Shown one piece after another: positions 46,354 through 63,564 of a stretch of 64,000 nt of DNA (the stretch's first letter is position 1; each line of letters starts with the position of its first letter). The stretch is from contig CAIKVT010000021.1 in assembly GCA_903830945.1 (NCBI GenBank), forward strand, positions 4,519 through 68,518. The letters are read 5' to 3'. The translations under genes and the position numbers were made by a program. Origin of the DNA: an uncultured Elusimicrobia bacterium. Lineage in GTDB: Bacteria; Elusimicrobiota; Elusimicrobia; UBA1565; UBA9628. The notes beneath the pieces were generated by a model that saw only the letters and a program-made list of their open reading frames with translations, searched no databases and was not told the origin of the DNA.

Positions 46354-47718
46354 TTAGTTTACGATGGATGATCCAGAGAAGGCAGGGGCAGGGGTGAACG
46401 GGGCTATGGCTGAGCCTGTGGCTTGGTAAGACGAGCCCGAAAACGAGGTAACGTATTTGAGGTCGACCTTCATGTCCTGGGCAGCCACTCCACCGCGGTT
46501 CATGAACGATAGTGTCGTGGGTCCGTCGGGGTGTGAGTAGAAGCCGGAGTCACCGACGCTGTTGCCTGCGGAGAGAGGGATGCTCGCAGGTCCCGATGAG
46601 CCGAATGGGATTTGGTTTGGGCCGCTGGCGCCGTACGCGATTAATGTTGATGCGGTCCCTATAGGCATGTTGGCGATAGATACGTGGCCGCTCGTGATGG
46701 CCCGCGCGCCGAAATCAACAGAGATATTGAAATTCATGCCGTCGGGCACCGTGGTACCGCTACCGCAGGACCCTCCAGTGCAGGAGCAGTAGGAGTAGTC
46801 GCCGGTCCCGCTGTAAGTCCCCAGCAAGCCGGATTGTGCGTTGGTCACCTGCTCCCATGAGGAAAGACCATCTGCGATGCCGCTTCCTGTCTGAGAGGCC
46901 CAGGTTTGGAGGTTGTTTTGGCTGCCAGAGAAGTCGCCCACGACTTCCGCGCTCCCGGCGTTTCCGCCGCCCGCGGCCGTATCCTGCCCCGACTGTTGGC
47001 CGGGCAGCGCGTCGTCCCACAAGTGGCCGGACCCCGCCCCCTGCGGCGGCGTCGGGTCCAGGGCGTTCAGGATCTGTTGTGCCTGTTGGCTCAGGTCCGT
47101 CACGCCGGCCGGAGGCTGCCCGGGGGCGATCGTGGTTCCAAATCCGGACTGGGTGATGACCACTTCTCCGTCTTCGTTGTACACAGTCACGCTGCCCGGA
47201 TTTTCGTCGGCGTTGTTCTGCCCGCCGGGGCCGAAGAGGACGACGATCGAGCCGTTCTCTGAGACCTGCCCGCCCGCGATGGTGCCCCGGATGCCGATGG
47301 TCCCTACCGGGAGCTTGACCTTCATGCTGGCCGGGTCCTTGCGCGCCACCTTGCCCGTGACGAAGCGGAACACGCCCTTGGTCACTCGCGCCGTGACCTT
47401 GCCAGCGCTGGTGGCCGGGTCGTAGACGAACTCGTCGAGGACCATGTCGCTGTTGGCGCCAACGGTGAAGACGGTCTCGTCGAGCAGCATGACCTGCAGA
47501 CGGCCCGCCGCGTCGGTGGTGACGTGGTCGTTGAGGAAGAGGGGCTTGCCGCTCTCCATGACCCGGCCTACGGCCGCGTTGGGGGCCTGGGCCATGACCA
47601 CGCCCTTGACTGCGGCCGCGGCGCCGATGCGCGTGAGGCCGGCGGCCGGGATCTGTGCCGGAGCGGTCGTCACGAAGGCGAGCAGCAGAGCGAGAAGGGT
47701 CATAGGCCGACCTCCCAT
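46354..47718 (-). CDS. FecR-domain-containing secreted protein with a Gly/Ser-rich C-terminal region
   Basis: 454 aa with a signal peptide. The N-terminal beta-rich segment (RLQVMLLDETVFTVGANSDMVLDEFVY..VFRFVTGKV) resembles the FecR fold. The C-terminal ~200 aa are low-complexity G/S/T. Confidence 0.5.
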   Translation of the reverse strand: MGGRPMTLLALLLAFVTTAPAQIPAAGLTRIGAAAAVKGVVMAQAPNAAVGRVMESGKPLFLNDHVTTDAAGRLQVMLLDETVFTVGANSDMVLDEFVYDPATSAGKVTARVTKGVFRFVTGKVARKDPASMKVKLPVGTIGIRGTIAGGQVSENGSIVVLFGPGGQNNADENPGSVTVYNEDGEVVITQSGFGTTIAPGQPPAGVTDLSQQAQQILNALDPTPPQGAGSGHLWDDALPGQQSGQDTAAGGGNAGSAEVVGDFSGSQNNLQTWASQTGSGIADGLSSWEQVTNAQSGLLGTYSGTGDYSYCSCTGGSCGSGTTVPDGMNFNISVDFGARAITSGHVSIANMPIGTASTLIAYGASGPNQIPFGSSGPASIPLSAGNSVGDSGFYSHPDGPTTLSFMNRGGVAAQDMKVDLKYVTSFSGSSYQATGSAIAPFTPAPAFSGSSIVN

Positions 47719-49076
47719 CTATAAGTGATCATGGCGGCGATCTTGTTGTTGGTGTAGGCGTAGTTCTTTATGGTGGATAGGGCGTGATAGTACTCGTAGG
47801 TCAGGGTAGCGAGCAGATCCTTGAGCTTGGGGTGGAGCACTCCCAGCGGAGCGCCCAGCGTGCCGCTGGCGCGCATGGTCGAATCGTGGCGGTAGCCGCC
47901 GAGGATTGTGGGGTCCTCGGCCTTATATTTATCGTAGTTGGCGTTGATTGAGGAGATCAGGAATGTCCCGCGGCCCATCAGCCAGGCGCAGTTTATGCCC
48001 GCGGTGAGGCGGTCGAAGCCCCAGTATTGCTCGGCGGCGTTCTTGAAGCCGTAGCCGATGACCGTGCCGAATTTCAGGGACGGGTTCAAGATGTGCTCGG
48101 TCCCGGCGGTGAAGTCCGTCTGTACGCCGGTGCGCTCCGCGGCGGCGCCAACCTGGGGGGTGGCCACGAAATCCTGGTACATGTCTCGGCCTTCGAGGAA
48201 GAGGTTCGTCGTCGGGCTGAAGCGGTAGTCGAGCCGCAGGTCACCGCCGCGGTCGCGCAGGAAGGTGCTCTGCGCCAGCTCGACATGGTCGAAGAGCAGG
48301 CTCGGGGTGAGCTTGACGTGGTTGGCCCGATAGACCCCTCCTATCTGCACCGAGTAGGCTTTGAGGTTGATGTTCTTGGCGAGGGTCTGCTCGGCCTGAT
48401 AATAGTTGAAGGAGCCGAACACCTCGGGCACGGACTGGTAGGGCAGGTCGCGCTTGACGCCGACGTTGCCCATGAGGATCAGGCTGGTGTCGTCGCGTCG
48501 GTCAGAGATGGGAATCGGTGTCCCCAGAAAGAGCGCCTGGCCTGAGGCCGGGGCCGCGTTGCGGTTCGTGTCATACTCGAAGCCCGCGCCGAGCAGGCCG
48601 CTGATGTGGGTCTTCTTCAGGCGCTTGGCCACGGCCGCGGCGTACTTGCCGGACTCCTCGCGCAGCAGCGGGGGCAAAGTGAGTTTCTGCAGGACGTCGA
48701 GCTCCCGCTGGGCCTCCACGATGTTGTCCAAGCGGTAGAGGACGATGGCGTAGAAGAGCCGGACCTCGGTCTGGTTCTGGTCTACTAGGAGGATGCGCTC
48801 CAAAGTGGCGGCCGCGCTCTTCACGTCTCCCCGGCGCACCTGGGCGCGGGCATAACGGTAGTTGAGCTCTACGTTGTCCGGATCAGCGAGGATAGCCTCG
48901 TAGGTGACGTCCTCACCCGGCGCGGAGCGCTTGAGCGCCTCGGATGCGAGGCGCTCGGCGCGTTGTTGCTGCGTCTCTTCGTGGGTCGGTTTCTGGACAT
49001 CCTTGTAAATGTCCTGCGCGGAAAGCCCGGCAGTGACGAGGATAAGAGTTGCCAGAATGATCAATGCGCGTATCAT
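47700..49076 (-). CDS. Putative outer-membrane beta-barrel protein with an N-terminal TPR-like helical region
   Basis: 458 aa with a signal peptide (MIRALIILATLILVTAGLSAQ) and helical TPR-like repeats in the N-terminal ~150 aa. The C-terminal part shows the alternating hydrophobic pattern of beta-barrel strands. Confidence 0.45.
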   Translation of the reverse strand: MIRALIILATLILVTAGLSAQDIYKDVQKPTHEETQQQRAERLASEALKRSAPGEDVTYEAILADPDNVELNYRYARAQVRRGDVKSAAATLERILLVDQNQTEVRLFYAIVLYRLDNIVEAQRELDVLQKLTLPPLLREESGKYAAAVAKRLKKTHISGLLGAGFEYDTNRNAAPASGQALFLGTPIPISDRRDDTSLILMGNVGVKRDLPYQSVPEVFGSFNYYQAEQTLAKNINLKAYSVQIGGVYRANHVKLTPSLLFDHVELAQSTFLRDRGGDLRLDYRFSPTTNLFLEGRDMYQDFVATPQVGAAAERTGVQTDFTAGTEHILNPSLKFGTVIGYGFKNAAEQYWGFDRLTAGINCAWLMGRGTFLISSINANYDKYKAEDPTILGGYRHDSTMRASGTLGAPLGVLHPKLKDLLATLTYEYYHALSTIKNYAYTNNKIAAMITYRWEVGL

Positions 49077-49180: not shown

Positions 49181-51457
49181 ATGGCCCAAAGAGAGGGGAG
49201 CGCTAAGGTCGCGGCCGCAATCCGGTGGTACAAGGCGCGGCGCAGCACCTTTCAAGGCTGGGCGCAGGTCGTGGTCCCGGCGGTGCTTTTTTTGGGGTTG
49301 GTTTCGGTCCGGGTCGCGGAGCCGGGCTGGGTCGAACAGATCCAGCATAAGGCCTTCGATGCCTTCCAGCGGGCCAAGCCCCGCCCTTATGAGCCGGTCC
49401 CGGTCCGCATCATAGACATCGACGACGAGAGTCTCAGGCGCCTTGGGCAGTGGCCCTGGCCGCGGACGCAAGTGGCCCAGTTGGTCCGGCGTCTCAGCGA
49501 CCTGGGCGCCGCGGTCGTGGCCTTCGACGCCGTTTTTGCTGAGCCGGACCGGACCTCTCCGTCCCGGGTCGCGGAGCTCTGGCCCAAGTCCGCGGAGACC
49601 GAAAACTTGCGCCGCCAGTTGACGCGACTGCCGGACCATGACCGGGTCCTGGCCCAGGCCATCAGCCAGGCCGCGGTGGTCCTTGGCTTCGCTCTCGTGG
49701 CAGAGCCCAACGATGTCGTGCCCGCGGTCAAGGCGCCTTTCTCATACGGCGGCGACGGACCGCTGCTCTACCTGGATGATTTTCGGGGCGCGGTCACGGA
49801 CCTTCCCGCTCTGGAGGAAGCGGCCGCGGGCAACGGCTGCTTCAGCTTCCTGCCGGAGCTTGACGGCATGGCGCGTCGGGCGCCGCTCATTTTCAGGCGA
49901 GGCCAGACTCTGCTGCCCGCCCTCTCGGCTGAGGTTTTGCGCGTAGCACAGGGCGCGTCCAATTACGCGGTCAAGTCTTCAGGAGCCAGCGGCGAGGGGG
50001 GCTACGGCCAGCACACCGGCATCAGCAAGATCAAGATCGGCCGCTACGTCATCCCCACGGACAGCAAGGGGCGGGTCTGGGTCTATTTTACGGAGGACGC
50101 GCCGGAGCGTACGGTCTCGGCGTGGAGGGTTTTCAATAAAGGTTTCGACAAGTCCATCATCGAAGGCGGGATGGTCTTCGTGGGCACGAGTGCTGCGGGC
50201 CTCAAGGACATGCGCGCCACGCCTCTTAACCCGGCCCTGCCCGGGGTGGAGATGCACGCCAACGTGGTGGAGCAGGTCTTGCTGGGCCGGTTCTTGCAGA
50301 GGCCGGATTGGGCGACAGGCGCGGAACTCATCTATATGGTCCTGCTCGGCTGCCTGCTCTTGGTCCTGCTGCCTAGGCTCGGCGCGGCTTGGTGCGCGTT
50401 GGTGGGCGGCGCGGGCATGGCGGCGGCCGTGGGATTCTCCTGGCGCATGTTCGCGGACAGGGGCTTGCTCATCGACCCGGTCTTCCCGTGCTTGACCATA
50501 CTCGTGGTCTATATGTCTTCCTCGCTCATCAATTACCTTAAAAGCGAGACCGAGCGCCGACAGGTGCGCAACGCCTTCTCGCGCTATATGCACCCCAAGC
50601 TCGTCGCGGAGCTCGCCAAGCATCCGGAGAAGCTGCGCCTAGGCGGCGAGACGCGGGACATGACCATCCTCTTCTGCGACATCCGGGGATTCACCACCAT
50701 CTCCGAGCAGTTCGACGCCCACGGCCTTACCCAGATGATCAATAAGTTCCTCACCCCCATGACCGGCATCATCATGGACCGGTCGGGTTACATCGACAAG
50801 TACATCGGCGACTGTATCATGGCGTTTTGGAACGCGCCCTTGGACGACCCGGAGCATGCGCGCAACGCCTGCCAGGCGGCCCTGGCCATGCATCAACGGC
50901 TTGCGGAGCTCGAAGGCGTATGGAAGGCGGAGGCAGCGGCCGAGGGCCGCAAGTTCGTGCCTATCCACATCGGCGTGGGCCTTAACACCGGGCTTTGCTG
51001 CGTGGGTAATATGGGCTCTGATCAGCGCTTTAATTACTCGGTGCTGGGCGATGATGTGAACCTGGCCTCGCGCTTGGAAGGACAGTCCAAGCCTTACGGG
51101 GTGAACACGATCATCGGGCCGCGCACTCGCGAGCTGGTCGCGGAGTTCGCGGCGCTGGAGCTCGATCTTATCCGGGTCAAGGGCAAGACCAAGCCCGTGC
51201 GCATATTCACTCTGCTGGGCGACGCCCGGAAAGCCCAGGAGCCCGGCTTCCAGCGGCATGTGCAGGTCCATGACCGGATGCTGGCCGCCTACCGGGCCCA
51301 GAAGTGGGATGAGGCTTTGGCCTTGCTGGCTGAGTGCCGAGGGGGGGGGCTGCCGCTGGAGAAGCTCCACGACTGCTATGAGGAACGCATCCTGGATTTT
51401 CAGCTTCATCCGCCGGCCGCGGGTTGGGACGGCACGTTCACTGCGACGAGCAAATGA
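49181..51457 (+). CDS. CHASE2 sensor domain-containing class III adenylate/guanylate cyclase
   Basis: 758 aa with an N-terminal TM, an extracytoplasmic CHASE2-like region and 3 TM segments. The C-terminal cyclase domain has FCDIRGFTTISEQ, GDCIMAFWNAP and the LGDDVNLASRLE motif. Confidence 0.85.
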   Translation: MAQREGSAKVAAAIRWYKARRSTFQGWAQVVVPAVLFLGLVSVRVAEPGWVEQIQHKAFDAFQRAKPRPYEPVPVRIIDIDDESLRRLGQWPWPRTQVAQLVRRLSDLGAAVVAFDAVFAEPDRTSPSRVAELWPKSAETENLRRQLTRLPDHDRVLAQAISQAAVVLGFALVAEPNDVVPAVKAPFSYGGDGPLLYLDDFRGAVTDLPALEEAAAGNGCFSFLPELDGMARRAPLIFRRGQTLLPALSAEVLRVAQGASNYAVKSSGASGEGGYGQHTGISKIKIGRYVIPTDSKGRVWVYFTEDAPERTVSAWRVFNKGFDKSIIEGGMVFVGTSAAGLKDMRATPLNPALPGVEMHANVVEQVLLGRFLQRPDWATGAELIYMVLLGCLLLVLLPRLGAAWCALVGGAGMAAAVGFSWRMFADRGLLIDPVFPCLTILVVYMSSSLINYLKSETERRQVRNAFSRYMHPKLVAELAKHPEKLRLGGETRDMTILFCDIRGFTTISEQFDAHGLTQMINKFLTPMTGIIMDRSGYIDKYIGDCIMAFWNAPLDDPEHARNACQAALAMHQRLAELEGVWKAEAAAEGRKFVPIHIGVGLNTGLCCVGNMGSDQRFNYSVLGDDVNLASRLEGQSKPYGVNTIIGPRTRELVAEFAALELDLIRVKGKTKPVRIFTLLGDARKAQEPGFQRHVQVHDRMLAAYRAQKWDEALALLAECRGGGLPLEKLHDCYEERILDFQLHPPAAGWDGTFTATSK

Positions 51458-52217: not shown

Positions 52218-52230
52218 ATCTCTGTGAAAA

Positions 52231-52260
52231 AAGCCCTCTGGCAAGAGGGCTTTTTTATTT
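52231..52260 (+). terminator. Rho-independent terminator downstream of tRNA-Ala
   Basis: The hairpin gccctct-ggca-agagggc at 52233-52250 is followed by tttttt. Confidence 0.75.
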
Positions 52261-52469: not shown

Positions 52470-53192
52470 ATGCGCATAGCCCGTGTATTGATTAATCATT
52501 TGGTTCATCGTCTTGATAATGCCATTATTTACACACTGTGCGAGTCTCGGAACATTGACTGCAATGACCGACCGCAGGCACTAAACCTTCGGGGACTTCC
52601 AGAGTCTATATTATCAGCAGGCATCTTGAACGGCCAGAACGTCGACATTGAACTCGTCGAGAGGGCGCGCAAAGGCGATGCCGATGCCTTTGGGATCCTG
52701 GTCATGCATTATCAACGCCTGCTCACAGTTATCGCATTTGAGATTCTGGGAGACACGGGGAGAACGGAGGATGTCGTGCAGGAAGCGTTCCTGTCCGCAT
52801 GGAAATCCCTCCCCCAATATAGGGGAGACGCCAGCTTCAAGAACTGGCTGTGCCGCATCCTGCTTAATAAGACCTATTCCGCGCTTCGTTGGGGACGCCT
52901 GCGCCGATGGCTCAGCCTCGACCAGCCATCCGGGGTTCCCTGGACCGAGACCTTGGAGGATACCGCGCCCGACGCGGACCCGGAACGCATCCGTCTGCGG
53001 GAGGAGCATTCGACCGCGGTGCGGCAGGCCGTGTCCGGTTTGCCGCTCCAGCAGAAGACCGCGGTCATATTGCGCTCCAACGGTCTTGACGTGGCCGAAG
53101 TGGCGCGGACCATGGGCGTCGCGGAGGGGACGGTCAAGGCGCATCTGCACCAGGCCCGCGCTCGACTCTCCTCGGTGATGGGGGGTACATGA
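52470..53192 (+). CDS. ECF (group 4) sigma-70 family RNA polymerase sigma factor
   Basis: Region 2 (LVERARKGDADAFGILVMHYQRLL..VQEAFLSAWKSL..FKNWLCRILLN) and region 4 (LRSNGLDVAEVARTMGVAEGTVKAHLHQARARL) are present. The ATG at 52470 gives 240 aa. A TTG at 52626 would give a more typical ~189 aa, so the start is uncertain. Confidence 0.8.
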   Translation: MRIARVLINHLVHRLDNAIIYTLCESRNIDCNDRPQALNLRGLPESILSAGILNGQNVDIELVERARKGDADAFGILVMHYQRLLTVIAFEILGDTGRTEDVVQEAFLSAWKSLPQYRGDASFKNWLCRILLNKTYSALRWGRLRRWLSLDQPSGVPWTETLEDTAPDADPERIRLREEHSTAVRQAVSGLPLQQKTAVILRSNGLDVAEVARTMGVAEGTVKAHLHQARARLSSVMGGT

Positions 53193-53536
53193 AACAAGAA
53201 GAAGACGACGCATTCTGGTCTGGAGTCGGGGACACGCTCCGGCCCCGCCTCAGCGAAGCTCATTGGACGGCTCAGCGCAACCGCATCCTTTCGCGGTTGG
53301 CCCCGGAGGAATCCGTGTCCGCATTCGCCGGCTGGTGGAAAGTCCCGGCGTTGACGCTGGCCTCGTGCGCTGTCTATGTGCTGTGCGTGGAGACATCCCT
53401 GCTCCCCCAGCCCACATCCGAACCGCCGGCCGCGGCGTCCTCGTCCGCCGGCGTCGTGACCCTGTCGACCATCCTGTCTGACGGGCAGGAGCCGAGCGAA
53501 GGGCATCTTTTGACCATGATCCTTGAAGGGGACTAA
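53189..53536 (+). CDS. Putative membrane-anchored anti-sigma factor
   Basis: 115 aa, translationally coupled to the ECF sigma gene (ATGA overlap), with a single TM (WWKVPALTLASCAVYVLCV). It is assigned by position and topology only. Confidence 0.5.
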   Translation: MKQEEDDAFWSGVGDTLRPRLSEAHWTAQRNRILSRLAPEESVSAFAGWWKVPALTLASCAVYVLCVETSLLPQPTSEPPAAASSSAGVVTLSTILSDGQEPSEGHLLTMILEGD

Positions 53537-53960
53537 AATGAACATGCGCTGGAATCAGATCGCCATATCGGTCGCGGTGGGCTTCCTTGCGGGAGCCTTG
53601 TTCTCCGATTTCTATCACATGCATATCAAGCGCAGGCCGCCCAAGGCCGTCCCGGAGGAAGGGGCGATAGAGAGGTGCACGCGCGAGTTGGACCTTTCCA
53701 AGCAGCAGCAGGACCAGGTGGCCGCCATCTTCAAGGAATATCGTCCAAAAGTGCGCGGTGTGAAGGATTCGATCCGGCCCGCATTGGAAGGCCTGCGCCT
53801 CAAGATCAAATCCGAATTGAGATCGGTCCTTACGCAGATGCAATACTCCAAGCTCGAAAAGCTCGACGATGAGTCCCGGCGGACCGAGGGTCCTCCGCCA
53901 ATGCGGGAGGGTCCAGGAGATTCCCGGCTACACGGCCAGGACCCGCCCCCCCGCCGCTAA
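53523..53960 (+). CDS. Periplasmic LTXXQ-motif protein (Spy/CpxP/ZraP-like)
   Basis: 145 aa with a signal/TM sequence, then helical repeats (LDLSKQQQDQVAAIFKEY.., LRLKIKSELRSVLTQMQYSKL) and a Pro-rich tail. The true start may be MNMRW at 53538. Confidence 0.5.
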   Translation: MKGTKMNMRWNQIAISVAVGFLAGALFSDFYHMHIKRRPPKAVPEEGAIERCTRELDLSKQQQDQVAAIFKEYRPKVRGVKDSIRPALEGLRLKIKSELRSVLTQMQYSKLEKLDDESRRTEGPPPMREGPGDSRLHGQDPPPRR

Positions 53961-54129
53961 GCCAGCGCCCTCCGGCGCAGACTCATCCGTTCCCACCCCC
54001 TAAATCCTCCTGCAGGGTCAACCGGGCCAGAATGCGTGTATTTTACAGGCATTTCCCCAAGTAAACCAAAATCCTTCCTGGGCGTCTCCATTGATGCAGG
54101 GGCTTTAGCCGGGCCGTCACAGAGGGTAT

Positions 54130-54687
54130 ATGCAAAAATCGATGGCCGCGATCTGCAACGCCGCGATCAGCGTGTGCCTTGGGACGATGATCCTGGGCGG
54201 CCGCGTGCAGGCTGCGGACTTCGGATCGGATGTGGGGCAAGGCACTTTCGGCGTCGGGCTGAACTACCCGGGGCTGGGCATGAGATATTTCCCGAGCGAT
54301 CAGCTGGCCTTGGAAGTCAAAGGCGAAGTAGACAAGGACGTGGTGGTCGGAGGCCTGCGGGGGTATTGCTATTTGACGCGCGTTTCCCGAGGAGCGCTTT
54401 TTCTGGGCGCGGAAGCCGACTACATACATTTCAAGGGAGCGGTCAGCCGGGGTTCCGGGGCTGTAGGCCAGGTGTTCGGCGGGTTCGAGTATTTTATATT
54501 GCAGGCTGTCGCTTTGCAGGCTGATTTTGGGCCGGCCTACATCTACCTTAAGAACCAGCAGGGCGGCCTTTCAGTCAGCGGCGTGGAGTACACGGCCAAT
54601 TTCGGGTTCAATTTCTATTGGGGAGGCAGAATGGCGCAAGAATCTCGGCCTTATACGCGGGATGAGGCTTCATGGTTGAGATATTGA
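54130..54687 (+). CDS. Small outer-membrane beta-barrel protein (OmpW/OmpA-barrel-like)
   Basis: 185 aa with a signal peptide, alternating hydrophobic beta-strand pattern and an aromatic-rich terminal strand (ANFGFNFYWGG). Confidence 0.5.
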   Translation: MQKSMAAICNAAISVCLGTMILGGRVQAADFGSDVGQGTFGVGLNYPGLGMRYFPSDQLALEVKGEVDKDVVVGGLRGYCYLTRVSRGALFLGAEADYIHFKGAVSRGSGAVGQVFGGFEYFILQAVALQADFGPAYIYLKNQQGGLSVSGVEYTANFGFNFYWGGRMAQESRPYTRDEASWLRY

Positions 54688-54688
54688 T

Positions 54689-57600
54689 ATGAAACGAATA
54701 TCCTGCTTGATCCTATTGGCGATCTTATCGATCACGGTCGATCTTTCAGCCGGATTCGACATCGGAATCACCAAAGCCATCAAGCGCAAGGTGGATTTGC
54801 TGGACAATAAAGTCACGGACAGCAGGAAGCCCGTGGTCTCGTTCGGATTCTCGCCGAGCGCACCCACCCCGGGCCAGACGGTAAGCTTCATCGACGTCTC
54901 CACGAATACGCTTACGTCATGGTCATGGGCATTCGGGGATGGTGCGACCAGCACCTCCCAAAACCCGGCCCACGCCTACAGCTTCGCGGGAACCTACGCA
55001 GTGACGCTCACAGGCACGAATGCCTGGGGCTCCAGCACCGCCAGGAAGACCGTGACCGTGACGGCCGCGGCGGTCGCGCCGGTCGCGGCCTTCAGCTTCT
55101 CGCCGTCCTCGCCGACCGCCGACCAGACGGTCACTTTCACGGACGTCTCCACCCACACGCCCACTTCCTGGTCTTGGACCTTCGGGGACGGGGGGACCAG
55201 CACTTCGCAAAACCCGACCCACGCCTACACTCCCTCCGGGACCTACATGGCCACGCTGACGGCCTCCAATTCAGCCGGCTCCAACGCCGTCAGCCGCACC
55301 GTGACCGTGAACCCGAGCTCTTTTTCCCTCGCTAGCTCCGCCTTCGCCGAGGGCGGAACCCTGCCGTACGACTACGCCTGCGACGGAGGAGGCGCCTCGC
55401 CCGACCTGTCCTGGAATAATAAGCCGTCCGGCACGCAGGAATTCGCGCTGACGATGAAGACTATAACTGCAGACGGGACGCCTAAATGGAACTGGGTGAT
55501 GTACAGCATCCCCGGGACGACTACGGGCTTGGCCAAGAACACTTCCGGGGTAGGCGTTACCGGGCTTGGCAGCGACCTGTCAGCCCTGGTCTATAATCCG
55601 CCCTGCTCGCTGGGGCCCGGACCCAGGACTTACACCCTGACCTTGTACGCGCTGTCGGAGTCGCCGACCCTGCCCGCCGCCGACCAGGTCACCGGCGCCG
55701 TGCTTATCAGCGCCATTTCGTCCATCACGATCAGTTCGACTTCCCTGGACATGACCTACAGCCGGCCCGCCCCCACGGCCGCTTTCACCTTCTCCCCGTC
55801 CTCTCCGTCTACTGGCACGATCGTTGCTTTTATGGATACCTCCACCCGCACGCCCACCGGCTGGTACTGGGACTTCGGGGATGGGGCGACCAGCAGTTCG
55901 CGGAACTCCACACACGCCTACAGCTCTGCGGGTACGTACACCGCATCGCTGACGGCCTCCAATCCGTACGGCTCCTCCAGCTCAAGCCAGGCCGTGACAG
56001 TCAGCGCGACTGGGATCCTACCCACGGCCGCGTTCAGCTTCTATCCGAGCAGTCCGACCACCTATAACACGGTAAGCTTCACCGACTTCTCGCTGAGCAC
56101 CCCGACGGCCTGGGCCTGGAATTTCGGCGACAGCGCCGTCAGCACGGCACAGTACCCGACGCACGTATACGGCTCCGCGGGCACCTACACCGTGACGCTC
56201 ACGGCGACTAATTCCTCCGGCTCGTCCACCTCGACCCATTCCGTGACCGTGGCCGTGCCGGCCTATAACATCGCGCAGGGCGTTTCCGACCAGGCCCAGG
56301 GCACCACTTTGGCCTTTGACGCCCTCGGCCTGATGAACGCCAACCTGGGCGCCGAATCCTATTTCCCGCCGGGCAAGGTGGCCGACTACACAGGCTTCCA
56401 GTTCCTACGCGACAGCGACCCCAGCAATATGGGCCACAACCCGGATTTCACGGGCCTGACCTCCAACAGCGTCATCCGTATACTCACCGACAGCCAACTG
56501 GCGCAACTGGCTGCCCTGGCCGTGAGCCAGGCGGACCTGGTCAACCAGTACGCATATCACCGCTTCACGCTGATAAAGGCGTTCCGGCGTCTTATGGACG
56601 GGGATATGCCCTCCGGCACCGCCGGTCTGAGCATGAGCGCGGTGACGGGCGTGTCGCAGAACCTCTACGCTATGGACGGCCAGATCGCCTTCGACCGGGC
56701 CCTGCTCTACGCCAACATCTACAAGTCCATGACGCGCGCCCAGCTGGCCGCCCTGGATGCCATGAAAGGGGTGGGCGCCTCCTCCTGGACCGTAACCGAC
56801 GCCAATTTCATGAAGGCCAGGGTAGAGTCCGCGCTGGGTCTCACCTATGCTTCCAACGCGACGATGAACACCCTGGTGCAGACCTACGCCGGCGACCTCT
56901 ACAGCTGGTATTCCGGCACGGTGGAGGCGGACGTCTACTTCTGCCCGGAGCGCCACGGCACCTACTACGGCGGGTTCTACATCAAGGACGCGCCGGCCAT
57001 GAACGCGCCGCAGGGCGTCAGTTACACCATTGACTCGGCTCTGACCGGGAACGCCGGGGCCAGCCTTCTCGACAGCTCGCTGGGCTACGTCACACCCACG
57101 CAGGCCGCCATCATGACTAACCTCATGAACACCCAGAAGAGCAACATGAACGGCATAGTCCAGGTGCGCACGCAGATAGCGGCTCTGCTGCGCACCCTGC
57201 TTGTCTCTACCGCTGCCAGCGACTCCGTCAGGGCGCAGGTGCTCGCGCTGTCCTCCGGCACCTACGGCACGCTGGACGGCCGGAACAACTACTACTACGC
57301 CACCGCCTTCAAGCAGGTCCATGACGCGCTGAGCGCTAGCCAGCGGGCCAAGCTGAAAACGGATTTCTGGGATGGGCTGCTTATCAGCACCTACACCAAC
57401 GGAAAAACTTACGACTATTCGGTCTGCAAATCCACTTATCTCTATTCGGACACCACCACCGACCCGAGCGTGCTGGCCCAGATACAGACTTACATAGACA
57501 ACACCGACTCCCTGTTCTCCACCGACCCGCCCTCGGCCGCGTTCTCATTCTCGCCGAGCACGCCCACGGTCGGGCAGACGATCACGTTCACGGACGCCTC

Positions 57601-58225
57601 CGACGGCCCCCCAACCTCATGGTCGTGGGATTTTGGTGACGGCGGCACCAGCGCGTCGCAGAACCCGACGCACTCTTACGATTCCTCCGGCACCTACACT
57701 GTCTCGCTGACGGCCACCAATGCCATCGGCTCGAGCTCCATAAGCCATACCCTCAGCGTCAGCCAGGGAAGTTTTACCCTGGTGAGCGGCGCGGGGGCCA
57801 GCGGCGGGGCCATGACGCTGGAATATTCCTGTTCCGGCGCCGGGTCTTCGCCGGCGATGTCCTGGACCAACGCGCCCTCCGGGACGCAACAGTTCGCTCT
57901 GACCATGTCTGAAGTCACTCCCCAGTTGGAGACCAAATATAACTGGGTCCTCTACGGCATACCAAGCGGCAGTTCCGGCTTTGCCAAGAACACTACCGGC
58001 GGTGGAACGCTGGGCGAGAGCGACGGAACGGCGGGAACGGCTTACAGCCCGCCCTGCGGCCCCGGTAACAGGCTTTATACGTACAGACTCTACGCCCTGT
58101 CCGGAGCCCCATCGCTCTCGTCCAATCCGGCGCAGGTAACAGGTTCCGTTCTTGCGACCGCGCTCGCGGGCATCACCATCAGTTCCGCGACCATGACGCT
58201 GACCTATACGGCGCCATCGCCATGA
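54689..58225 (+). CDS. Giant secreted multidomain protein: five PKD domains, two PEBP (YbhB/YbcL) domains and a central ~400-aa domain of unknown family
   Basis: 1178 aa. PKD signatures WxWxFGDGxTSxxQNPxHxY occur at about aa 77, 166, 392, 476 and 976. PEBP-like segments lie at about aa 215-335 and 1032-1150 (..YACDGGGASPDLSW.., ..YTLTLYAL..). The central region (about aa 527-955) is paralogous to the protein at 58992-60626. Confidence 0.8.
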   Translation: MKRISCLILLAILSITVDLSAGFDIGITKAIKRKVDLLDNKVTDSRKPVVSFGFSPSAPTPGQTVSFIDVSTNTLTSWSWAFGDGATSTSQNPAHAYSFAGTYAVTLTGTNAWGSSTARKTVTVTAAAVAPVAAFSFSPSSPTADQTVTFTDVSTHTPTSWSWTFGDGGTSTSQNPTHAYTPSGTYMATLTASNSAGSNAVSRTVTVNPSSFSLASSAFAEGGTLPYDYACDGGGASPDLSWNNKPSGTQEFALTMKTITADGTPKWNWVMYSIPGTTTGLAKNTSGVGVTGLGSDLSALVYNPPCSLGPGPRTYTLTLYALSESPTLPAADQVTGAVLISAISSITISSTSLDMTYSRPAPTAAFTFSPSSPSTGTIVAFMDTSTRTPTGWYWDFGDGATSSSRNSTHAYSSAGTYTASLTASNPYGSSSSSQAVTVSATGILPTAAFSFYPSSPTTYNTVSFTDFSLSTPTAWAWNFGDSAVSTAQYPTHVYGSAGTYTVTLTATNSSGSSTSTHSVTVAVPAYNIAQGVSDQAQGTTLAFDALGLMNANLGAESYFPPGKVADYTGFQFLRDSDPSNMGHNPDFTGLTSNSVIRILTDSQLAQLAALAVSQADLVNQYAYHRFTLIKAFRRLMDGDMPSGTAGLSMSAVTGVSQNLYAMDGQIAFDRALLYANIYKSMTRAQLAALDAMKGVGASSWTVTDANFMKARVESALGLTYASNATMNTLVQTYAGDLYSWYSGTVEADVYFCPERHGTYYGGFYIKDAPAMNAPQGVSYTIDSALTGNAGASLLDSSLGYVTPTQAAIMTNLMNTQKSNMNGIVQVRTQIAALLRTLLVSTAASDSVRAQVLALSSGTYGTLDGRNNYYYATAFKQVHDALSASQRAKLKTDFWDGLLISTYTNGKTYDYSVCKSTYLYSDTTTDPSVLAQIQTYIDNTDSLFSTDPPSAAFSFSPSTPTVGQTITFTDASDGPPTSWSWDFGDGGTSASQNPTHSYDSSGTYTVSLTATNAIGSSSISHTLSVSQGSFTLVSGAGASGGAMTLEYSCSGAGSSPAMSWTNAPSGTQQFALTMSEVTPQLETKYNWVLYGIPSGSSGFAKNTTGGGTLGESDGTAGTAYSPPCGPGNRLYTYRLYALSGAPSLSSNPAQVTGSVLATALAGITISSATMTLTYTAPSP

Positions 58226-58295
58226 TGAAAGATCCAGGCGCCGCCAGGCTGGACTTCTTGCCGGCAAAACAGTTTAAACTATGTCTGGAGGAATT

Positions 58296-58910
58296 ATGAA
58301 ACGGCTGACATTTTTAGAGCTTGGCTTGATGCTAGTGCTTTCCCTTCCGGGCGGAGCCGCCCTGGCGCAGTCGGAGCAAGGCGCGGTGAGGAAAAGTCCC
58401 GCACTCCACTTCATCCTGCGTAGCCCGGCGGTGGATGGCGGCGGACAGCTCCCGAAAGACTACACCGGCGACGGAACCAGTTCCACGCTGCCGCTCGAAT
58501 GGAACGGAGCCCCAAAGGAGACAAAGAGTTTCGCAATCATCATGCATCATGTGGCGCCTGACATGATCAAGTGGTACTGGATCCTCTACGACATTCCGGC
58601 CAAAGTCAGGCGCCTGCCCAAGAACGTGAAAGGCGTGGGCAAGCTTGGCAACAACAGCGTCAACGGCCGGGTGGAGTACGCCCCGCCGCATTCCAAGGGC
58701 CCGGGACCCAAGACCTACATCTACACCCTCTACGCCCTATCCGCGCCGCCCAAGCTGGCTGTGCCACCGATTGAAGTCAACCGCGACGCCTTGCTCGCCG
58801 CCATGAAGGGCCTCGTCATCGACAGCGCCCAGCTAAGCGTGGTTTACGAACGGTTTCCCGCACCGGACGGCCGCGAGGGGAATGCGCCGCCCCCAAACGA
58901 CCGGCCATAA
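58296..58910 (+). CDS. Secreted PEBP family protein (YbhB/YbcL, Raf-kinase-inhibitor-like)
   Basis: Signal peptide, then PEBP motifs (LPLEWNGAPKETKSFAIIMHH..DMIKWYWILYDIP..GPKTYIYTLYAL). Confidence 0.8.
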   Translation: MKRLTFLELGLMLVLSLPGGAALAQSEQGAVRKSPALHFILRSPAVDGGGQLPKDYTGDGTSSTLPLEWNGAPKETKSFAIIMHHVAPDMIKWYWILYDIPAKVRRLPKNVKGVGKLGNNSVNGRVEYAPPHSKGPGPKTYIYTLYALSAPPKLAVPPIEVNRDALLAAMKGLVIDSAQLSVVYERFPAPDGREGNAPPPNDRP

Positions 58911-58991
58911 TGCAAGGAATTATATGAGGGCTGACCTAAACCAAAATCATGTTCGGGCGTCTGTATATATGAGGGGTCTTGAGGAGGACTT

Positions 58992-60626
58992 ATGAAAATG
59001 AGAGCGTTCTTGATAGCCGCAATTTTCTCCCTATTGGCTTGGTCAGCTGGGAATTCTTATGCCCAGGAAGAGAATGGCGGGGGTGGAAGAGGCCCGCGCA
59101 GAGGATCGCAGTCTGTCTCCGCAGAGCAAAAGGCCTCCGCCAAGAATGCCCTTTCGGGCTACAACGCCTCGAGCCTCTCAGCCGACGATGCCAAGGCCAT
59201 CCACAGGGCCATGCGGGAGATCGGCATCCACGGGGGGCCTGCGGAGGACGAGCTTCTCAGCTCCATCGGGTTCGACCCCGAAACGCTTAAGAAACTCGAT
59301 CCGCCGCCGGCCAGGCGCGGCGGCCAAGAGAGAGGGGGCAATAGCGGAGGGAGCTCACGGGAGGACCGCGGCGGAGGGATGCGCGGGGACCAGGGCCAAG
59401 ACAGAGGCGGCGAGAGAGCTGGGGCGAGGCCGGGCCCATCGGGGAAGCGCGGCCCGGGCGGCAGCCAATATAGCCTCGAGCAGGCGCTCTCGGACAACGC
59501 CCAGCTGCACACCATCGCATTCAATGGACTGGCGTTTCTGACCGGCGATTTCGGTGCAGCCACCTTCATCCCGCCGGGCAAGGTGTGCGACTTCTTTGGG
59601 TTCCAATACATGCGCGACATCGACGCGGCGAAGAAGGGGCATAACCCCATCTTCCTCAACCGCGTCGTGGGAAACGTCCTTCATATCCTCACAGCCGATC
59701 AAAAGCAGCTGTTTCTGGACCTGGCGGCGGAGCAGGGGCCGCAGCTTACGGCCCTGGCGAAGCTGCGGCTGCCGGTCATCAAGGCTTTCCACCTACAGAG
59801 GGACAACCAGCTGCCTGCGGGCAGTTCCGGGCTGAACAAGGCAGCCGTCATGCGCGGCGTCGGCGAGATCTTCGCCATGGACGCCGAACTCAGCCGCCGT
59901 CGGGCGGAGGTCATGGCGCAGGTGTATTTATCCCTGACGCCTGACCAGAAGGCTTCCTTCGCCAGGATGAAGTTCGGCGATTTCAACACCTGGGCGGACC
60001 TCGACGAGAGCGAAGGCAAGGAAGCCGGCCGCGGCAAGCCCAAGATGTTCAACGTGGCCTATATGACCTACGCCAGCGAGTTCTTCAGCTGGACCGCCGG
60101 CTCGGTGGAAGCGGACGTCTATTTCTGCCCGGAGCGTCACGGCACGTACTTCGGCGGATTCTACATGAAGGACATGCCCGCCATGGGCAAGCGCAATTAC
60201 GACATCAGCACCTCGGTCACCGGCGACAGCGGCAAGGCGTTCCTTGACGACGCGCTCACCCCCGCCCAGCGCCAGAACGTCACAGCGATCCCCGCCCTCC
60301 AGCGGCAGGCCATGGACAAGATCGTGACGGTGCGCCGGGCGATGTCCCAGGAGCTGCGCAAATACCTCAAAGGCCAGACGCCGGACAAGAAAAGGATAAT
60401 AGCGTTGGGCCGCCAATACGGCGAACTGGACGGTGAGGTGTCCTGGTACTATGCCACGGCCTTCGCCCGCGTCAACCGCACGCTCACCGCTCAGCAGCGC
60501 GCTGCATTGGTCAAGCTGCGCAACTTGGACGGCTACACGAGCGCGCCCTATTACATCTATTCGGATGGTGCGCGGGAGGAGCCGGAATTGGGAGACGTCG
60601 ATGCCTTCTTCTTTGCGCCTAAATAA
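58992..60626 (+). CDS. Secreted protein: Gly/Arg-rich low-complexity N-terminal segment plus a ~400-aa domain of unknown family shared with the giant PKD protein
   Basis: 544 aa with a signal peptide. About aa 28-160 are RGG/GGR-rich. About aa 165-544 align with the giant-protein centre (shared blocks FIPPGKVxDFxGFQ..RD.D....GHNP.F and SVEADVYFCPERHGTYFGGFY.KD.PAM). Confidence 0.7.
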   Translation: MKMRAFLIAAIFSLLAWSAGNSYAQEENGGGGRGPRRGSQSVSAEQKASAKNALSGYNASSLSADDAKAIHRAMREIGIHGGPAEDELLSSIGFDPETLKKLDPPPARRGGQERGGNSGGSSREDRGGGMRGDQGQDRGGERAGARPGPSGKRGPGGSQYSLEQALSDNAQLHTIAFNGLAFLTGDFGAATFIPPGKVCDFFGFQYMRDIDAAKKGHNPIFLNRVVGNVLHILTADQKQLFLDLAAEQGPQLTALAKLRLPVIKAFHLQRDNQLPAGSSGLNKAAVMRGVGEIFAMDAELSRRRAEVMAQVYLSLTPDQKASFARMKFGDFNTWADLDESEGKEAGRGKPKMFNVAYMTYASEFFSWTAGSVEADVYFCPERHGTYFGGFYMKDMPAMGKRNYDISTSVTGDSGKAFLDDALTPAQRQNVTAIPALQRQAMDKIVTVRRAMSQELRKYLKGQTPDKKRIIALGRQYGELDGEVSWYYATAFARVNRTLTAQQRAALVKLRNLDGYTSAPYYIYSDGAREEPELGDVDAFFFAPK

Positions 60627-60632
60627 GGAAGA

Positions 60633-62051
60633 ATGCTGATGATCCGCATACCGGTCATCGGAATCATCCTCGCCCTGGCCGCAGGCCCGGCTTGCGCAGC
60701 GCCGGATGCCGAGGGGCGGGGTCGCGGCGGGCGTCACGGTCCGGAGCACCAGGCCAAGGTCGAAGTGCCTGCGCGTCCTCTGGATGTCGTTCTCGGCAGA
60801 CCCACGGCGACCTCGGTCACGGCCAGCGTCCTTTTGTACGCAGGCGGACGCGGAAGCGTCGAGTATGGAGTGCGCCAGGGAGAGTACCCGGACCATACTC
60901 CCGTGACCGAGTTCGGCAAAGGAACCCCGGTCCACATGGTGATCGGACCCCTTAAGGCCGACACGCGCTATTATTATCGGTTCCGTCACGAGACCGCCGG
61001 CGCGCAGGGCGCGGTCGCAGGCACATTCCACACCCAGCGCGCGCCCGGCAGCGCTTTCGTGTTCACTGTGCAGGCTGATTCTCACCTGGATCAGAACACA
61101 AGCACCGAGCTCTACGAGCGGACGCTGCGCAACGCCCTGGCCGACAGGCCGGATTTCCATATCGACCTGGGCGACACGTTCATGACCGGGAAGTATCGGG
61201 GCCAGGATCCATCGAGGCTTTACCTGGCGCAGCGCTACTATTTCGGCTTGCTTTGCCATTCCGCGCCTCTTTTTTTCGTGCTCGGCAATCACGACGGGGA
61301 ACCAGGCGGCGGCCGCGGACAGCCAGCCGACGCGATCCTGCTGCGCAAGAAGTACTTCCCCAACCCTGTCCAGGACGGGTTCTACACGGGAGAGGACCGT
61401 GGCGCCCTGGAGAACTATTACGCGTGGCAATGGGGCGACGCGCTGTTCGTCGTGCTCGACCCGTTCCGATATTCCGGTCGGCCTCGTGGCGAGCCGGAGG
61501 ACAACTGGAACATGACTTTGGGGGCGGAGCAATATCATTGGCTGAAGCGGACTCTGGAAAACAGCAAGGCCGCGTTCAAATTCGTGTTCATCCATCATCT
61601 GGTCGGTGGTGTAAACCGCGACGGCCGCAACCGCGGCGGGGCCGAGGCCGCGGCGTTCTATGAGTGGGGGGGGCGCAACGCGGACGGCAGCGATGGTTTC
61701 GCGGAGCAACGCCCCGGCTGGGAGATGCCCATCCAGCAGCTCCTTGTGCGCAACGGCGTGCAGATCGTTTTTCACGGTCACGACCATTTTTTCGCGAAGC
61801 AGGACCTGGGCGGCATCGTCTACCAGCTTGTGCCGCAGCCCGGAGCACAGGAGCGCCGCAGCGTGCGAGAAGCCGAACGCTATGGATATGAGAAAGGCGA
61901 ATTCCTGAGCAGCCCCGGCCACCTGCGCGTCCGCGTGTCCCCGAACAGCGCTGTTGTGGAGTGCGTCCGGTCACGCTTGCCGGAAGATGAGGGGATGCGG
62001 AAAGAGAAAGACGCGGTCGCCTACACCTATACGATCCCGGCTGCGCCATAA
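60633..62051 (+). CDS. Secreted calcineurin-like metallophosphoesterase with a purple-acid-phosphatase-type N-terminal domain
   Basis: Signal peptide, then an FN3-like N-domain (..VTASVLLYAGGRGSVEYGV..ADTRYYYRFRH). Phosphoesterase motifs are present: GDTFMTGKY, VLGNHDGE and FHGHDHFF. Confidence 0.8.
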   Translation: MLMIRIPVIGIILALAAGPACAAPDAEGRGRGGRHGPEHQAKVEVPARPLDVVLGRPTATSVTASVLLYAGGRGSVEYGVRQGEYPDHTPVTEFGKGTPVHMVIGPLKADTRYYYRFRHETAGAQGAVAGTFHTQRAPGSAFVFTVQADSHLDQNTSTELYERTLRNALADRPDFHIDLGDTFMTGKYRGQDPSRLYLAQRYYFGLLCHSAPLFFVLGNHDGEPGGGRGQPADAILLRKKYFPNPVQDGFYTGEDRGALENYYAWQWGDALFVVLDPFRYSGRPRGEPEDNWNMTLGAEQYHWLKRTLENSKAAFKFVFIHHLVGGVNRDGRNRGGAEAAAFYEWGGRNADGSDGFAEQRPGWEMPIQQLLVRNGVQIVFHGHDHFFAKQDLGGIVYQLVPQPGAQERRSVREAERYGYEKGEFLSSPGHLRVRVSPNSAVVECVRSRLPEDEGMRKEKDAVAYTYTIPAAP

Positions 62052-62409: not shown

Positions 62410-63564
62410 ATGGTAACCAATATGCCTGAAAACATCACACGGATACTCGACATCCGTAAAGAAGTCGAGAAAAAGTCGTGTTTCCTATTCGGCCCCAGGC
62501 TGACAGGGAAGACTTGGCTTCTGCGGCATACTCTTAAAAATATCCGGACCTACAACTTGTTGGACCACGACACCTTTCTGCGTCTCAGCCGCTCTGCCAG
62601 CCTCATAGGTGAGGAATGTACGGCTCGGGACTCCATCGTCGTCATCGATGAGGTCCAGAAGCTCCCTTCGCTGCTTGATGCGGTCCACATGCTCATCGAG
62701 GAGCGAGGGATCCATTTTCTTTTGACCGGATCCAGCGCCCGAAAGCTGCGCCGCGGCGGCGTCAACTTGTTGGGGGGCAGGGCCCGGATCAGGAATCTCT
62801 ACCCCTTGAGTTTCTCCGAACTACAGAAGTCCTTCAATCTTGAGCGTGCCGTCAACCACGGACTGCTCCCGGCTATTTACTCGTCGCAGGAGCCGGACGA
62901 GGACTTGAAGGCCTATGTGGGCACGTACCTTCAAGAGGAAGTGGCCGCCGAAGGATTGACGCGAAATATCCCGGCCTTCAGCCGATTCCTGGAAGTGGCC
63001 GCCTTGTGCAACGGCAAGATGATTAATTTCGCCAACATCGCCAACGACGCACAGGTGGCGCGCAGCACCGTTCAGGAATACTTCCAAATACTCAAAGACA
63101 CATTGCTCGCTCATGAGGTGCCGGCTTGGCGCAAATCCGTAAGGCGTAAGCCCATCACAACCTCGAAATTCTATCTGTTCGATTCAGGGGTCGCCCGGAT
63201 CCTTCAGCACCGTGGCCGCATCAATCCTGGCTCTCCGGAATTCGGAGAAGCCTTCGAACACTTCATATTCCATGAATTGTTGACCTACGCCGACTATTGC
63301 CGGGCAGGAGAGATCCGCTACTGGCGGTCGCTCTCCGGTTTTGAGGTCGACTTCGTCCTGGGAGACACTGCAGCCATCGAAGTGAAAGCTGGCAAGAACG
63401 TGTCTCCGCAGGACCTCAAGGGTCTGCGCGCCTTACGCGAAGAGGGGGGCCTCAAGCACTATCTAATGGTGTCCGGCGAGAGAACCGCGCGGGTCATCGA
63501 CGGCATACGCATTCTTCCCTGGAAGGAATTCCTCCAACAGCTTTGGGATGGACGATTCAGCTGA
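62410..63564 (+). CDS. AAA-family ATPase of the AAA_14/DUF4143 type
   Basis: 384 aa with Walker A FLFGPRLTGKTWLL and Walker B VVIDEVQKL. The C-terminal ~150 aa have the conservation typical of DUF4143. An AT-rich promoter-like region lies upstream. Confidence 0.7.
   Translation: MVTNMPENITRILDIRKEVEKKSCFLFGPRLTGKTWLLRHTLKNIRTYNLLDHDTFLRLSRSASLIGEECTARDSIVVIDEVQKLPSLLDAVHMLIEERGIHFLLTGSSARKLRRGGVNLLGGRARIRNLYPLSFSELQKSFNLERAVNHGLLPAIYSSQEPDEDLKAYVGTYLQEEVAAEGLTRNIPAFSRFLEVAALCNGKMINFANIANDAQVARSTVQEYFQILKDTLLAHEVPAWRKSVRRKPITTSKFYLFDSGVARILQHRGRINPGSPEFGEAFEHFIFHELLTYADYCRAGEIRYWRSLSGFEVDFVLGDTAAIEVKAGKNVSPQDLKGLRALREEGGLKHYLMVSGERTARVIDGIRILPWKEFLQQLWDGRFS

Follow-up and report, generated by a model that had tools for sequence, protein, structure and literature searches.

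In a 64,000-nt stretch of contig CAIKVT010000021.1 from an uncultured Elusimicrobia bacterium (hereafter the window), two secreted proteins of one gene cluster carry paralogous domains, which we call X-A and X-B. Both are members of a large, unnamed family of exported all-alpha domains of ~380–415 amino acids (aa). By profile comparison, each domain is a tandem duplication of a ~180-aa unit that consists of a loop element and, after it, an LTXXQ helical hairpin of the Spy/CpxP type, and the invariant polar residues of the two loops are predicted to form one binding site, with a hard metal cation, a phosphate-type anion or both as its ligand. Adjacency and gene fusions in all three pairwise combinations link the family with PEBP and with a metallophosphoesterase resembling PhoD and purple acid phosphatases (PAPs), and the family is also tied to an adjacent CusRS-like two-component system or, in the window, to an extracytoplasmic function (ECF) sigma factor. 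We tentatively favor a role for the domain as a ligand-binding, single-chain Spy/ZraP-like periplasmic partner or sensor for a secreted phosphoesterase/PEBP module, a reading to which we give somewhat less than an even chance.

The original prediction, made from the letters of the window, had proposed that the segments at nt 56267–57554 and 59487–60626 are paralogous over their whole length and had called for a pairwise alignment. BLASTP with composition-adjusted statistics bears the paralogy out, with 147 of 406 aligned residues identical (36%; 53% positives, 241 bits, E 1e-80). The best score from 200 shuffles of the second segment was 26 bits (mean 17), which rules out a compositional artefact as the cause of the alignment. 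The segments belong to open reading frames (ORFs) at 54689–58225 (+; 1178 aa) and 58992–60626 (+; 544 aa), and their predicted boundaries were essentially right, as a hidden Markov model (HMM) of the family places the domains at nt 56282–57526 (aa 532–946) and nt 59487–60623 (aa 166–544). The conserved motif blocks were likewise located where the prediction had put them, two in each protein (loop elements in Table 1). Since one A-type and one B-type domain were present in 21 of the 21 two-copy loci that we fetched, across phyla and with the A type preceding the B type in 18, the pair in the window is an ancient and co-inherited A-type plus B-type pair rather than a local duplication.

The AlphaFold2 model of the X-B domain, computed on an alignment of 68 sequences, is confident (predicted local distance difference test (pLDDT) 91.6, predicted template modeling score 0.90) and, apart from two short beta bridges, all-alpha. 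The view that the domain has no recognizable family or fold stands for the domain as a whole: a whole-domain search of Pfam returned only LTXXQ, on part of the B copy, NCBIfam gave no match, neither single-sequence nor profile searches with the domain matched any PDB sequence, and the X-B model had no whole-domain match among the PDB folds, nor did any known all-alpha enzyme match it. We found no Pfam or NCBIfam model and no solved structure that covers the whole domain. An alkaline phosphatase-like or sulfatase-like fold, which had been named as an outcome that would overturn the prediction, does not agree with the all-alpha model, and the domain gave no Pfam or PDB match to Sulfatase, Alk_phosphatase or Phosphodiest.

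The same view does not hold for the parts of the domain. When the two halves were compared by hhalign, domain residues 8–167 aligned to residues 193–350 with a probability of 97.7% (E 1.9e-12, 152 columns), and the long hairpins of the N- and C-terminal units alone aligned with E 1.2e-11. The loop element of each unit, which is specific to this family, spans ~55 aa and consists of a helix, the conserved loop, a short helix and a further loop. Both hairpins of X-B pass the gathering cut-off of the Pfam LTXXQ model (PF07813; 24.3 bits), as does the whole X-B domain with 40.2 bits; X-A stays below it, with 18.3 bits for the C-terminal unit and no match for the N-terminal unit. PF07813 was matched by 39 of 68 family members. 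The X-B motifs LTADQ, LTPDQ, LTPAQ and LTAQQ are located at domain residues ~68, ~149, ~256 and ~333, each at the start of a predicted helix, and these four motifs per chain equal the content of two Spy protomers, as a Spy protomer has two LTxxQ motifs (PMC4791398). By these matches the domain belongs to the LTXXQ superfamily, the B type through the Pfam threshold and the A type via its homology to B. It shares with that superfamily the periplasmic export and the linkage to envelope sensors, having signal peptides and a two-component system or an ECF sigma factor nearby, but it departs from the norm of a small protomer of about 100–160 aa assembling into a homo-oligomeric cradle or barrel, as it contains two units and two extra loop elements in 380–415 aa. 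These two conserved elements are found in no described LTXXQ member.

The loop consensus reads PPGKVxDxxGFQYxRD...GH in the first half of the domain and (C)PERxGTYxGGFYxKD in the second. The hhalign alignment of the halves places F.PPGKV.D..GFQYMRD in register with YFCPERHGTYFGGFYMKD, and the CPERHGTY block is therefore the pseudo-symmetric twin of the PPGKV block. We assessed the conservation of these residues in 137 diverse cluster representatives that are 36–65% identical to the B copy of the window. H52, D210, Y212, P215, E216, R217, G223 and K228 (domain numbering) are 100% invariant, P29, P30, G31, K32, D35, Q40, R43, D44, G51, Y221 and F225 are kept in at least 98%, and position 229 is Asp in 131 representatives (about 96%). 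The CPERHGTY block, which had been called invariant, is so between the two copies in the window, but only partly across the family: residue 214 is Cys in 130 representatives, Ala in 5 and Thr in 2, and at position 218, Gln (76 representatives) outnumbers His (59), a split that is present in both the A and B subfamilies.

These replacements weaken the proposal that the block forms a Cys/His active or metal site, and a site of that kind is not supported, with His218 not conserved and Cys214 replaced in ~5% of the sequences. A C34–C214 disulfide was also rejected; C34 occurs in only 33% of the sequences, covariation was uninformative, and no second conserved Cys was found across the family. CPER does not fit the C-x-P-x-R motif of sulfatases that carries formylglycine. 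What remains is a conserved polar set of carboxylates, one His, two Tyr, one Gln and four basic residues. Part of this set is symmetric across the halves (K32/R217, R43/K228 and D44/D229), and the rest has no counterpart in the other half, with D35, Q40 and H52 belonging to the first half and D210, Y212 and E216 to the second. In a mutual-information analysis of contacts between the loops, the signal was dominated by the split into A and B subfamilies, and the weak hints for positions 50–239 and 54–239 were not used.

The family is large and widespread. Searched with the combined A and B profile, 1.84 billion representatives yielded 988 clusters at 50% identity (E ≤ 1e-3), 435 of them with E ≤ 1e-30, and a collection with one genome per species contained at least 558 confirmed stretches. 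These come from metagenome-assembled genomes (MAGs) labeled Elusimicrobia and from Planctomycetota, Verrucomicrobiota, Lentisphaerae, Desulfobacterota, Acidobacteriota, Armatimonadota, Bacteroidota and others. Tractable carriers of the family include Gimesia maris and Victivallis vadensis. The X-B query gave more than 3700 matches at 90% clustering, and its homologues across many phyla are 65–82% identical. The best 120 matches are still 67–100% identical and originate in Phycisphaerae, Planctomycetaceae, Verrucomicrobiota, Hydrogenedentota and Pontiellaceae. Their existing labels are 'hypothetical' or 'Spy/CpxP family protein refolding chaperone', the latter being an annotation of the Joint Genome Institute (JGI). 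The X-A query gave more than 1400 matches at 90% clustering, with the nearest homologues 51–57% identical; these relatives occur in Planctomycetota, Syntrophus, Niveibacterium and Competibacter, and many of them carry a fused PKD, PEBP or Ig-like domain. A hydrophobic N-terminus was present in 307 of 364 homologues. The genomes closest to the window (82%) are lake MAGs labeled Elusimicrobia that have the same gene order (loci L007, L011 and L012). One MAG (CAIXBR01; L007, L009 and L010) contains at least three separate cassettes of PEBP, X-B and metallophosphoesterase genes, so that the module can be multi-copy in a genome. Our searches of the literature through LTXXQ, PEBP, CpxP-family and metallophosphoesterase contexts found no publication on the double-LTXXQ family.

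For the gene neighborhoods, we collected 83 non-redundant loci with a simple ORF caller and BLAST clustering, and counted neighbors within 5 kb in the 39 loci that have at least 5 kb on both sides; the sample is biased toward the B type, and many loci are short MAG contigs. Antisense shadow ORFs, which the caller produced in high-GC DNA, were discarded, including two neighbor clusters (U212 and U214) that proved to be shadows of response-regulator and sulfatase genes. A metallophosphoesterase homologue was the most frequent neighbor (22 of the 39 loci), and in 14 loci its gene is the immediate same-strand neighbor of the X gene, the stop codon of one often overlapping the start codon of the other. 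An OmpR-type regulator with a HAMP histidine kinase followed (18/39), then PEBP (15/39), a sulfatase (13/39) and a second X copy (10/39). The linked kinases and regulators match the heavy-metal sensor family best (CusS/CopS and CusR/CopR), below the curated NCBIfam cut-offs; the periplasmic domain of the kinases is poorly conserved, and we found no metal motif in it. At loci that have only the A type (L003, L087 and L088, from Niveibacterium, Competibacter and a 7-Mb genome), the two-component system is the sole recurrent neighbor. In the window and at L001, the first gene of the cluster encodes an ECF sigma factor. In all of 45 loci compared, X-B was more conserved than its partner metallophosphoesterase (median identities 67.6% and 47.6%), a comparison biased by the choice of the loci for their X-B similarity.

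The same partners recur in single polypeptides. X-PEBP fusions occur in 17 ORFs and in both orders, X is fused to a metallophosphoesterase in a 1456-aa protein (L025:5448-9818), and PEBP is fused to a metallophosphoesterase in two (L039:7733-9757 and L047:7632-9761). PEBP is also the commonest fusion partner among 59 long representatives (16), ahead of PKD (10) and Lcl_C (4); type IX secretion system (T9SS) tails, SGL and Metallophos/PhoD are rarer (2–3 each), and further fusion modules in the family are Ig-like (Big), FG-GAP and dockerin. Two other fusions were seen at these loci. One joins a sulfatase to a metallophosphoesterase (L027:11137-14724). The other, a 1109-aa protein with FGE-sulfatase, PEBP and arylsulfotransferase parts (L089:3607-6936), is encoded immediately 5' of an A-type X gene and links PEBP to sulfate-ester chemistry.

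In the window, the X genes are part of a tight same-strand cluster that runs from the ECF sigma factor to the metallophosphoesterase (52470–62051; Table 1). The 1178-aa protein has a signal peptide followed by PKD (aa 48–117), PKD (135–208), PEBP (222–362), PKD (362–439), PKD (445–504), X-A (532–946), PKD (946–1030) and PEBP (1029–1178). The metallophosphoesterase gene starts 6 nt past the X-B stop codon. The enzyme shows the canonical Metallophos motifs (DxH, GD, GNHD, H and GHxH) and an Fn3-like domain at its N-terminus. Its metal-ligand residues D149/H151, D181, N219/H220/D221, H321 and H383/H385 are all invariant, and its AlphaFold2 model (pLDDT 75.9) matched PhoD (2yeq, E 9e-17) and plant PAPs (E 1e-16 to 1e-13) in Foldseek. 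Because the chromophoric Tyr of PAPs (GDxxY) is absent, the sequence being GDTFM, the enzyme is PhoD/PAP-like and not a true PAP. By sequence, four products of the cluster carry a signal peptide of the Sec type, namely the 1178-aa protein, the stand-alone PEBP, X-B and the metallophosphoesterase. No twin-arginine motif is present in the metallophosphoesterase, and folding and metal loading of this Sec-exported enzyme must therefore take place outside the cytoplasm. Highly charged low-complexity linkers rich in Gly, Arg, Gln and Pro follow the signal peptides of X-B (58992–59486) and the metallophosphoesterase (60633–60770). Homologues have similar linkers, some with a conserved ~45-aa insert (LSAxDAKAIH...GGPxE..LL...GFDPE.L.KLDPPP).

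Immediately ahead of the X cluster, at 52470–53960, the ECF sigma factor, a single-pass protein and a protein with weak LTXXQ/Metal_resist similarity make up a CnrH/CnrY/CnrX-like trio. The single-pass protein had no Pfam or NCBIfam match, and profile comparison of the double-LTXXQ domain with the third, 145-aa protein was not significant. The ORF at 54130–54687 matches an outer-membrane beta-barrel model (TIGR04565) weakly, the E-value of 0.003 being far from its cut-off. Upstream of the cluster lie housekeeping genes (ThrRS, GAPDH, PGK, TonB and OmpA-like), and a CHASE2-domain adenylate/guanylate cyclase gene (49181–51457, +) stands beside divergent genes with FecR-domain (46354–47718, −) and TPR (47700–49076, −) products. 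Just past the cluster, an ATPase gene with AAA_14 and DUF4143 domains (62410–63564) is located in a stretch with a G+C content of 0.547 against about 0.62, which may mark a boundary or an inserted element. Long antisense ORFs at 59928–61922 (−; 664 aa) and 56405–57322 (−; 305 aa) overlap the X-B/metallophosphoesterase genes and the X-A segment, respectively. Equivalent antisense ORFs at other loci are 'conserved' only as shadows of the conserved genes.

Table 1 Features of the X gene cluster in the window (nt positions; residues in domain numbering)
Feature	Position	Strand	Basis or detail
Strong terminator-like hairpin	52227-52256		Upstream of the cluster
ECF sigma factor, head of cluster	52470..53192	+	Pfam Sigma70_r2, Sigma70_r4_2, Sigma70_ECF
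115-aa protein with one hydrophobic segment, putative anti-sigma factor	53189..53536	+	Position only
145-aa protein, CnrX-like or Spy-like position	53523..53960	+	Metal_resist 6e-4, LTXXQ 7e-3, both sub-cut-off
185-aa ORF, unknown	54130-54687	+	Conserved only in closest MAGs
1178-aa secreted multidomain protein	54689..58225	+	Pfam PKD_4 5e-79, PBP 4e-31; repeat and PEBP positions by BLAST
X-A, A-type double-LTXXQ domain	56282..57526	+	Family HMM envelope aa 532-946 of the 1178-aa protein, 474 bits
Loop element 1 of X-A, SYFPPGKVADYTGFQFLRDSDPSNMGHNP	56357..56443	+	Translation
Loop element 2 of X-A, GTVEADVYFCPERHGTYYGGFYIKDAPAM	56915..57001	+	Translation
Stand-alone secreted PEBP (YbhB/YbcL-type), between the X genes	58281..58910	+	Pfam PBP 5.6e-20; TIGR00481 8e-12, sub-cut-off
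Signal peptide and Gly/Arg-rich disordered linker of X-B protein	58992..59486	+	Translation
X-B, B-type double-LTXXQ domain	59487..60623	+	aa 166-544 of the 544-aa secreted protein; family HMM 654 bits
Loop element 1 of X-B, TFIPPGKVCDFFGFQYMRDIDAAKKGHN	59562..59645	+	K32, D35, Q40, R43, D44, H52
N-terminal LTXXQ hairpin of X-B (LTADQ, LTPDQ)	59646..59981	+	PF07813 26.6 bits, model positions 13-97 of 100
Loop element 2 of X-B, GSVEADVYFCPERHGTYFGGFYMKDMPAMG	60099..60188	+	D210, Y212, C214, P215, E216, R217, K228, D229
C-terminal LTXXQ hairpin of X-B (LTPAQ, LTAQQ)	60234..60536	+	PF07813 25.4 bits, model positions 15-99 of 100
Secreted PhoD/PAP-like metallophosphoesterase	60633..62051	+	Pfam Metallophos 6e-11, PhoD, Pur_ac_phosph_N

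In the reading that we favor, a single chain would mimic the two-protomer cradle of the Spy, CpxP and ZraP dimers, and the two pseudo-symmetric loops would contribute K32, D35, Q40, R43, D44 and H52 together with D210, Y212, E216, R217, K228 and D229 to one site, whose ligand would be the hard metal cation and/or phosphate-type anion proposed above. The domain may then be a partner of the co-encoded phosphoesterase/PEBP module that depends on a ligand and works, in the periplasm or on the cell surface, as a holdase, a metallochaperone or a substrate presenter, and it may feed back on the neighboring envelope sensor in the manner of CpxP, ZraP and CnrX; the A-type and B-type copies probably work together. 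A partner role is supported by the Sec export of the phosphoesterase, because an enzyme exported in this way folds and is loaded with metal outside the cytoplasm. Several observations weigh against it. The 11–12 invariant polar residues exceed what a simple metal site needs and resemble the active site of an enzyme; the conservation of X-B above that of its partner enzyme, in all 45 loci of that selection-biased set, would be unusual for a chaperone; 17 of the 39 fully flanked loci have no metallophosphoesterase within 5 kb; the matches of the two-component systems lie under the curated cut-offs; and the fusion partners PKD, Ig-like, T9SS tail and dockerin would more typically be seen on a surface enzyme or binding module than on a periplasmic chaperone.

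Some of these points would be explained if the domain were itself a new extracytoplasmic enzyme (a phosphodiesterase, esterase or lyase) on a duplicated Spy-like scaffold, an alternative that we consider rather unlikely. Its active site would be built from the invariant residues of the two loops (His, Tyr, Asp, Glu, Arg, Lys and Gln), and its substrate would be an extracellular compound carrying phosphate or sulfate, on which the PhoD/PAP-like phosphoesterase, sulfatases and PEBP would work in sequence with it. Twelve polar residues that are invariant or nearly so in the 137 representatives, a 65–82% identity across phyla, with a conservation above that of the partner enzyme, fusion modules of the kind that secreted enzymes typically carry (PKD, Big, FG-GAP, T9SS tails and dockerin), and the co-occurrence with ester hydrolases (metallophosphoesterase, sulfatase and SGL) all fit such an enzyme. 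However, no similarity in sequence or fold to known enzymes was found, Cys214, the one residue of nucleophile type, gives way to Ala or Thr in 7 of the 137 representatives, and we know of no enzymatic member of the LTXXQ scaffold family; the loci that carry just a two-component system beside an A-type gene also fit a stress effector better than a catabolic enzyme. Those loci would agree as well with a pure signaling accessory of the CpxP/CnrX type, which senses a periplasmic cue and controls the adjacent kinase or anti-sigma factor and has no direct role toward the phosphoesterase or PEBP. The two-component system in 18 of 39 loci and the ECF sigma factor at the head of two clusters point in this direction, and to our knowledge the characterized LTXXQ proteins are all wired to envelope signaling (CpxP with CpxA, ZraP with ZraS, CnrX with CnrY, and Spy under Bae/Cpx). 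A dedicated kinase regulator is nevertheless improbable: the PEBP fusions, the metallophosphoesterase fusion at L025 and the placement in PKD-rich surface proteins are ill-suited to it, a nearby sensor gene is missing from about half of the fully flanked loci, and the periplasmic domains of the linked kinases are poorly conserved. More improbable still seems a role that involves no specific ligand, be it that of a general ATP-independent chaperone in the manner of Spy or that of a structural or adhesive module at the surface, in which the polar residues would only staple the halves together. The homology of both halves to LTXXQ, the JGI label and the possibly structural nature of the loop residues in common (Pro, basic, Gly, Tyr and basic-Asp) speak for it, but the conservation is far above what would be expected, the invariants of the two halves are asymmetric (H52, Q40 and D35 against D210, Y212 and E216), the A plus B pairing is conserved, and the fusion partners are specific.

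More broadly, the A/B pair might be a new extracytoplasmic enzyme or a dedicated metal/phosphate-handling factor in a phylum-spanning system for phosphoester scavenging or metal-phosphate detoxification, together with PEBP, Sec-exported PhoD-like phosphoesterases and its own CusRS-like sensor or ECF sigma switch; we regard this as a possibility on the doubtful side. If true, it would give bacterial PEBP proteins their first functional context. The linkage and the fusions among PEBP, phosphoesterase and sensor genes in any case define an extracytoplasmic module, open to testing, in bacteria that have been little studied despite their abundance in the environment, among them Planctomycetota and Verrucomicrobiota. 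This module may illuminate bacterial PEBP proteins, and the linkage and fusions concern a family of ~1000 clusters at 50% identity in many phyla that has no Pfam or NCBIfam model and no solved structure. Reading the domain as a single-chain double Spy/CpxP unit with two invariant, pseudo-symmetric loops provides a structural hypothesis and a short list of residues.

Among known proteins, Spy, the periplasmic ATP-independent chaperone of E. coli (PF07813; PDB 3o39), is a homodimer of ~140-aa protomers, whereas X has two units in a chain of ~380 aa. Each unit of X is preceded by a ~55-aa loop element with invariant polar residues that Spy lacks, and X is much more conserved, recurrently fused to PEBP and PKD, and linked to a phosphoesterase. 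In CnrX and ZraP (LTXXQ/Metal_resist; PDB 2y39 and 3lay), the metal ligands are His-, Glu- and Met-rich motifs inside the hairpin; by contrast, the polar residues of X are located in the extra loops and include only one invariant His. CpxP, the periplasmic inhibitor of CpxA, resembles X in belonging to the LTXXQ family and in the position of its gene beside an OmpR-type two-component system (with the X gene divergent from the system at L003), and X differs from it in size, in the single-chain duplication, in the loop elements and in the fusions. The lipase-specific foldase Lif and the saposin domain of acid sphingomyelinase, whose hydrolase is a metallophosphoesterase, are all-helical accessories encoded with or fused to a secreted hydrolase and are needed for its folding or for substrate presentation. 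With no sequence or fold similarity detected, they offer an analogy rather than a homology, in which such accessories parallel the adjacency of X to the metallophosphoesterase and their fusion at L025.

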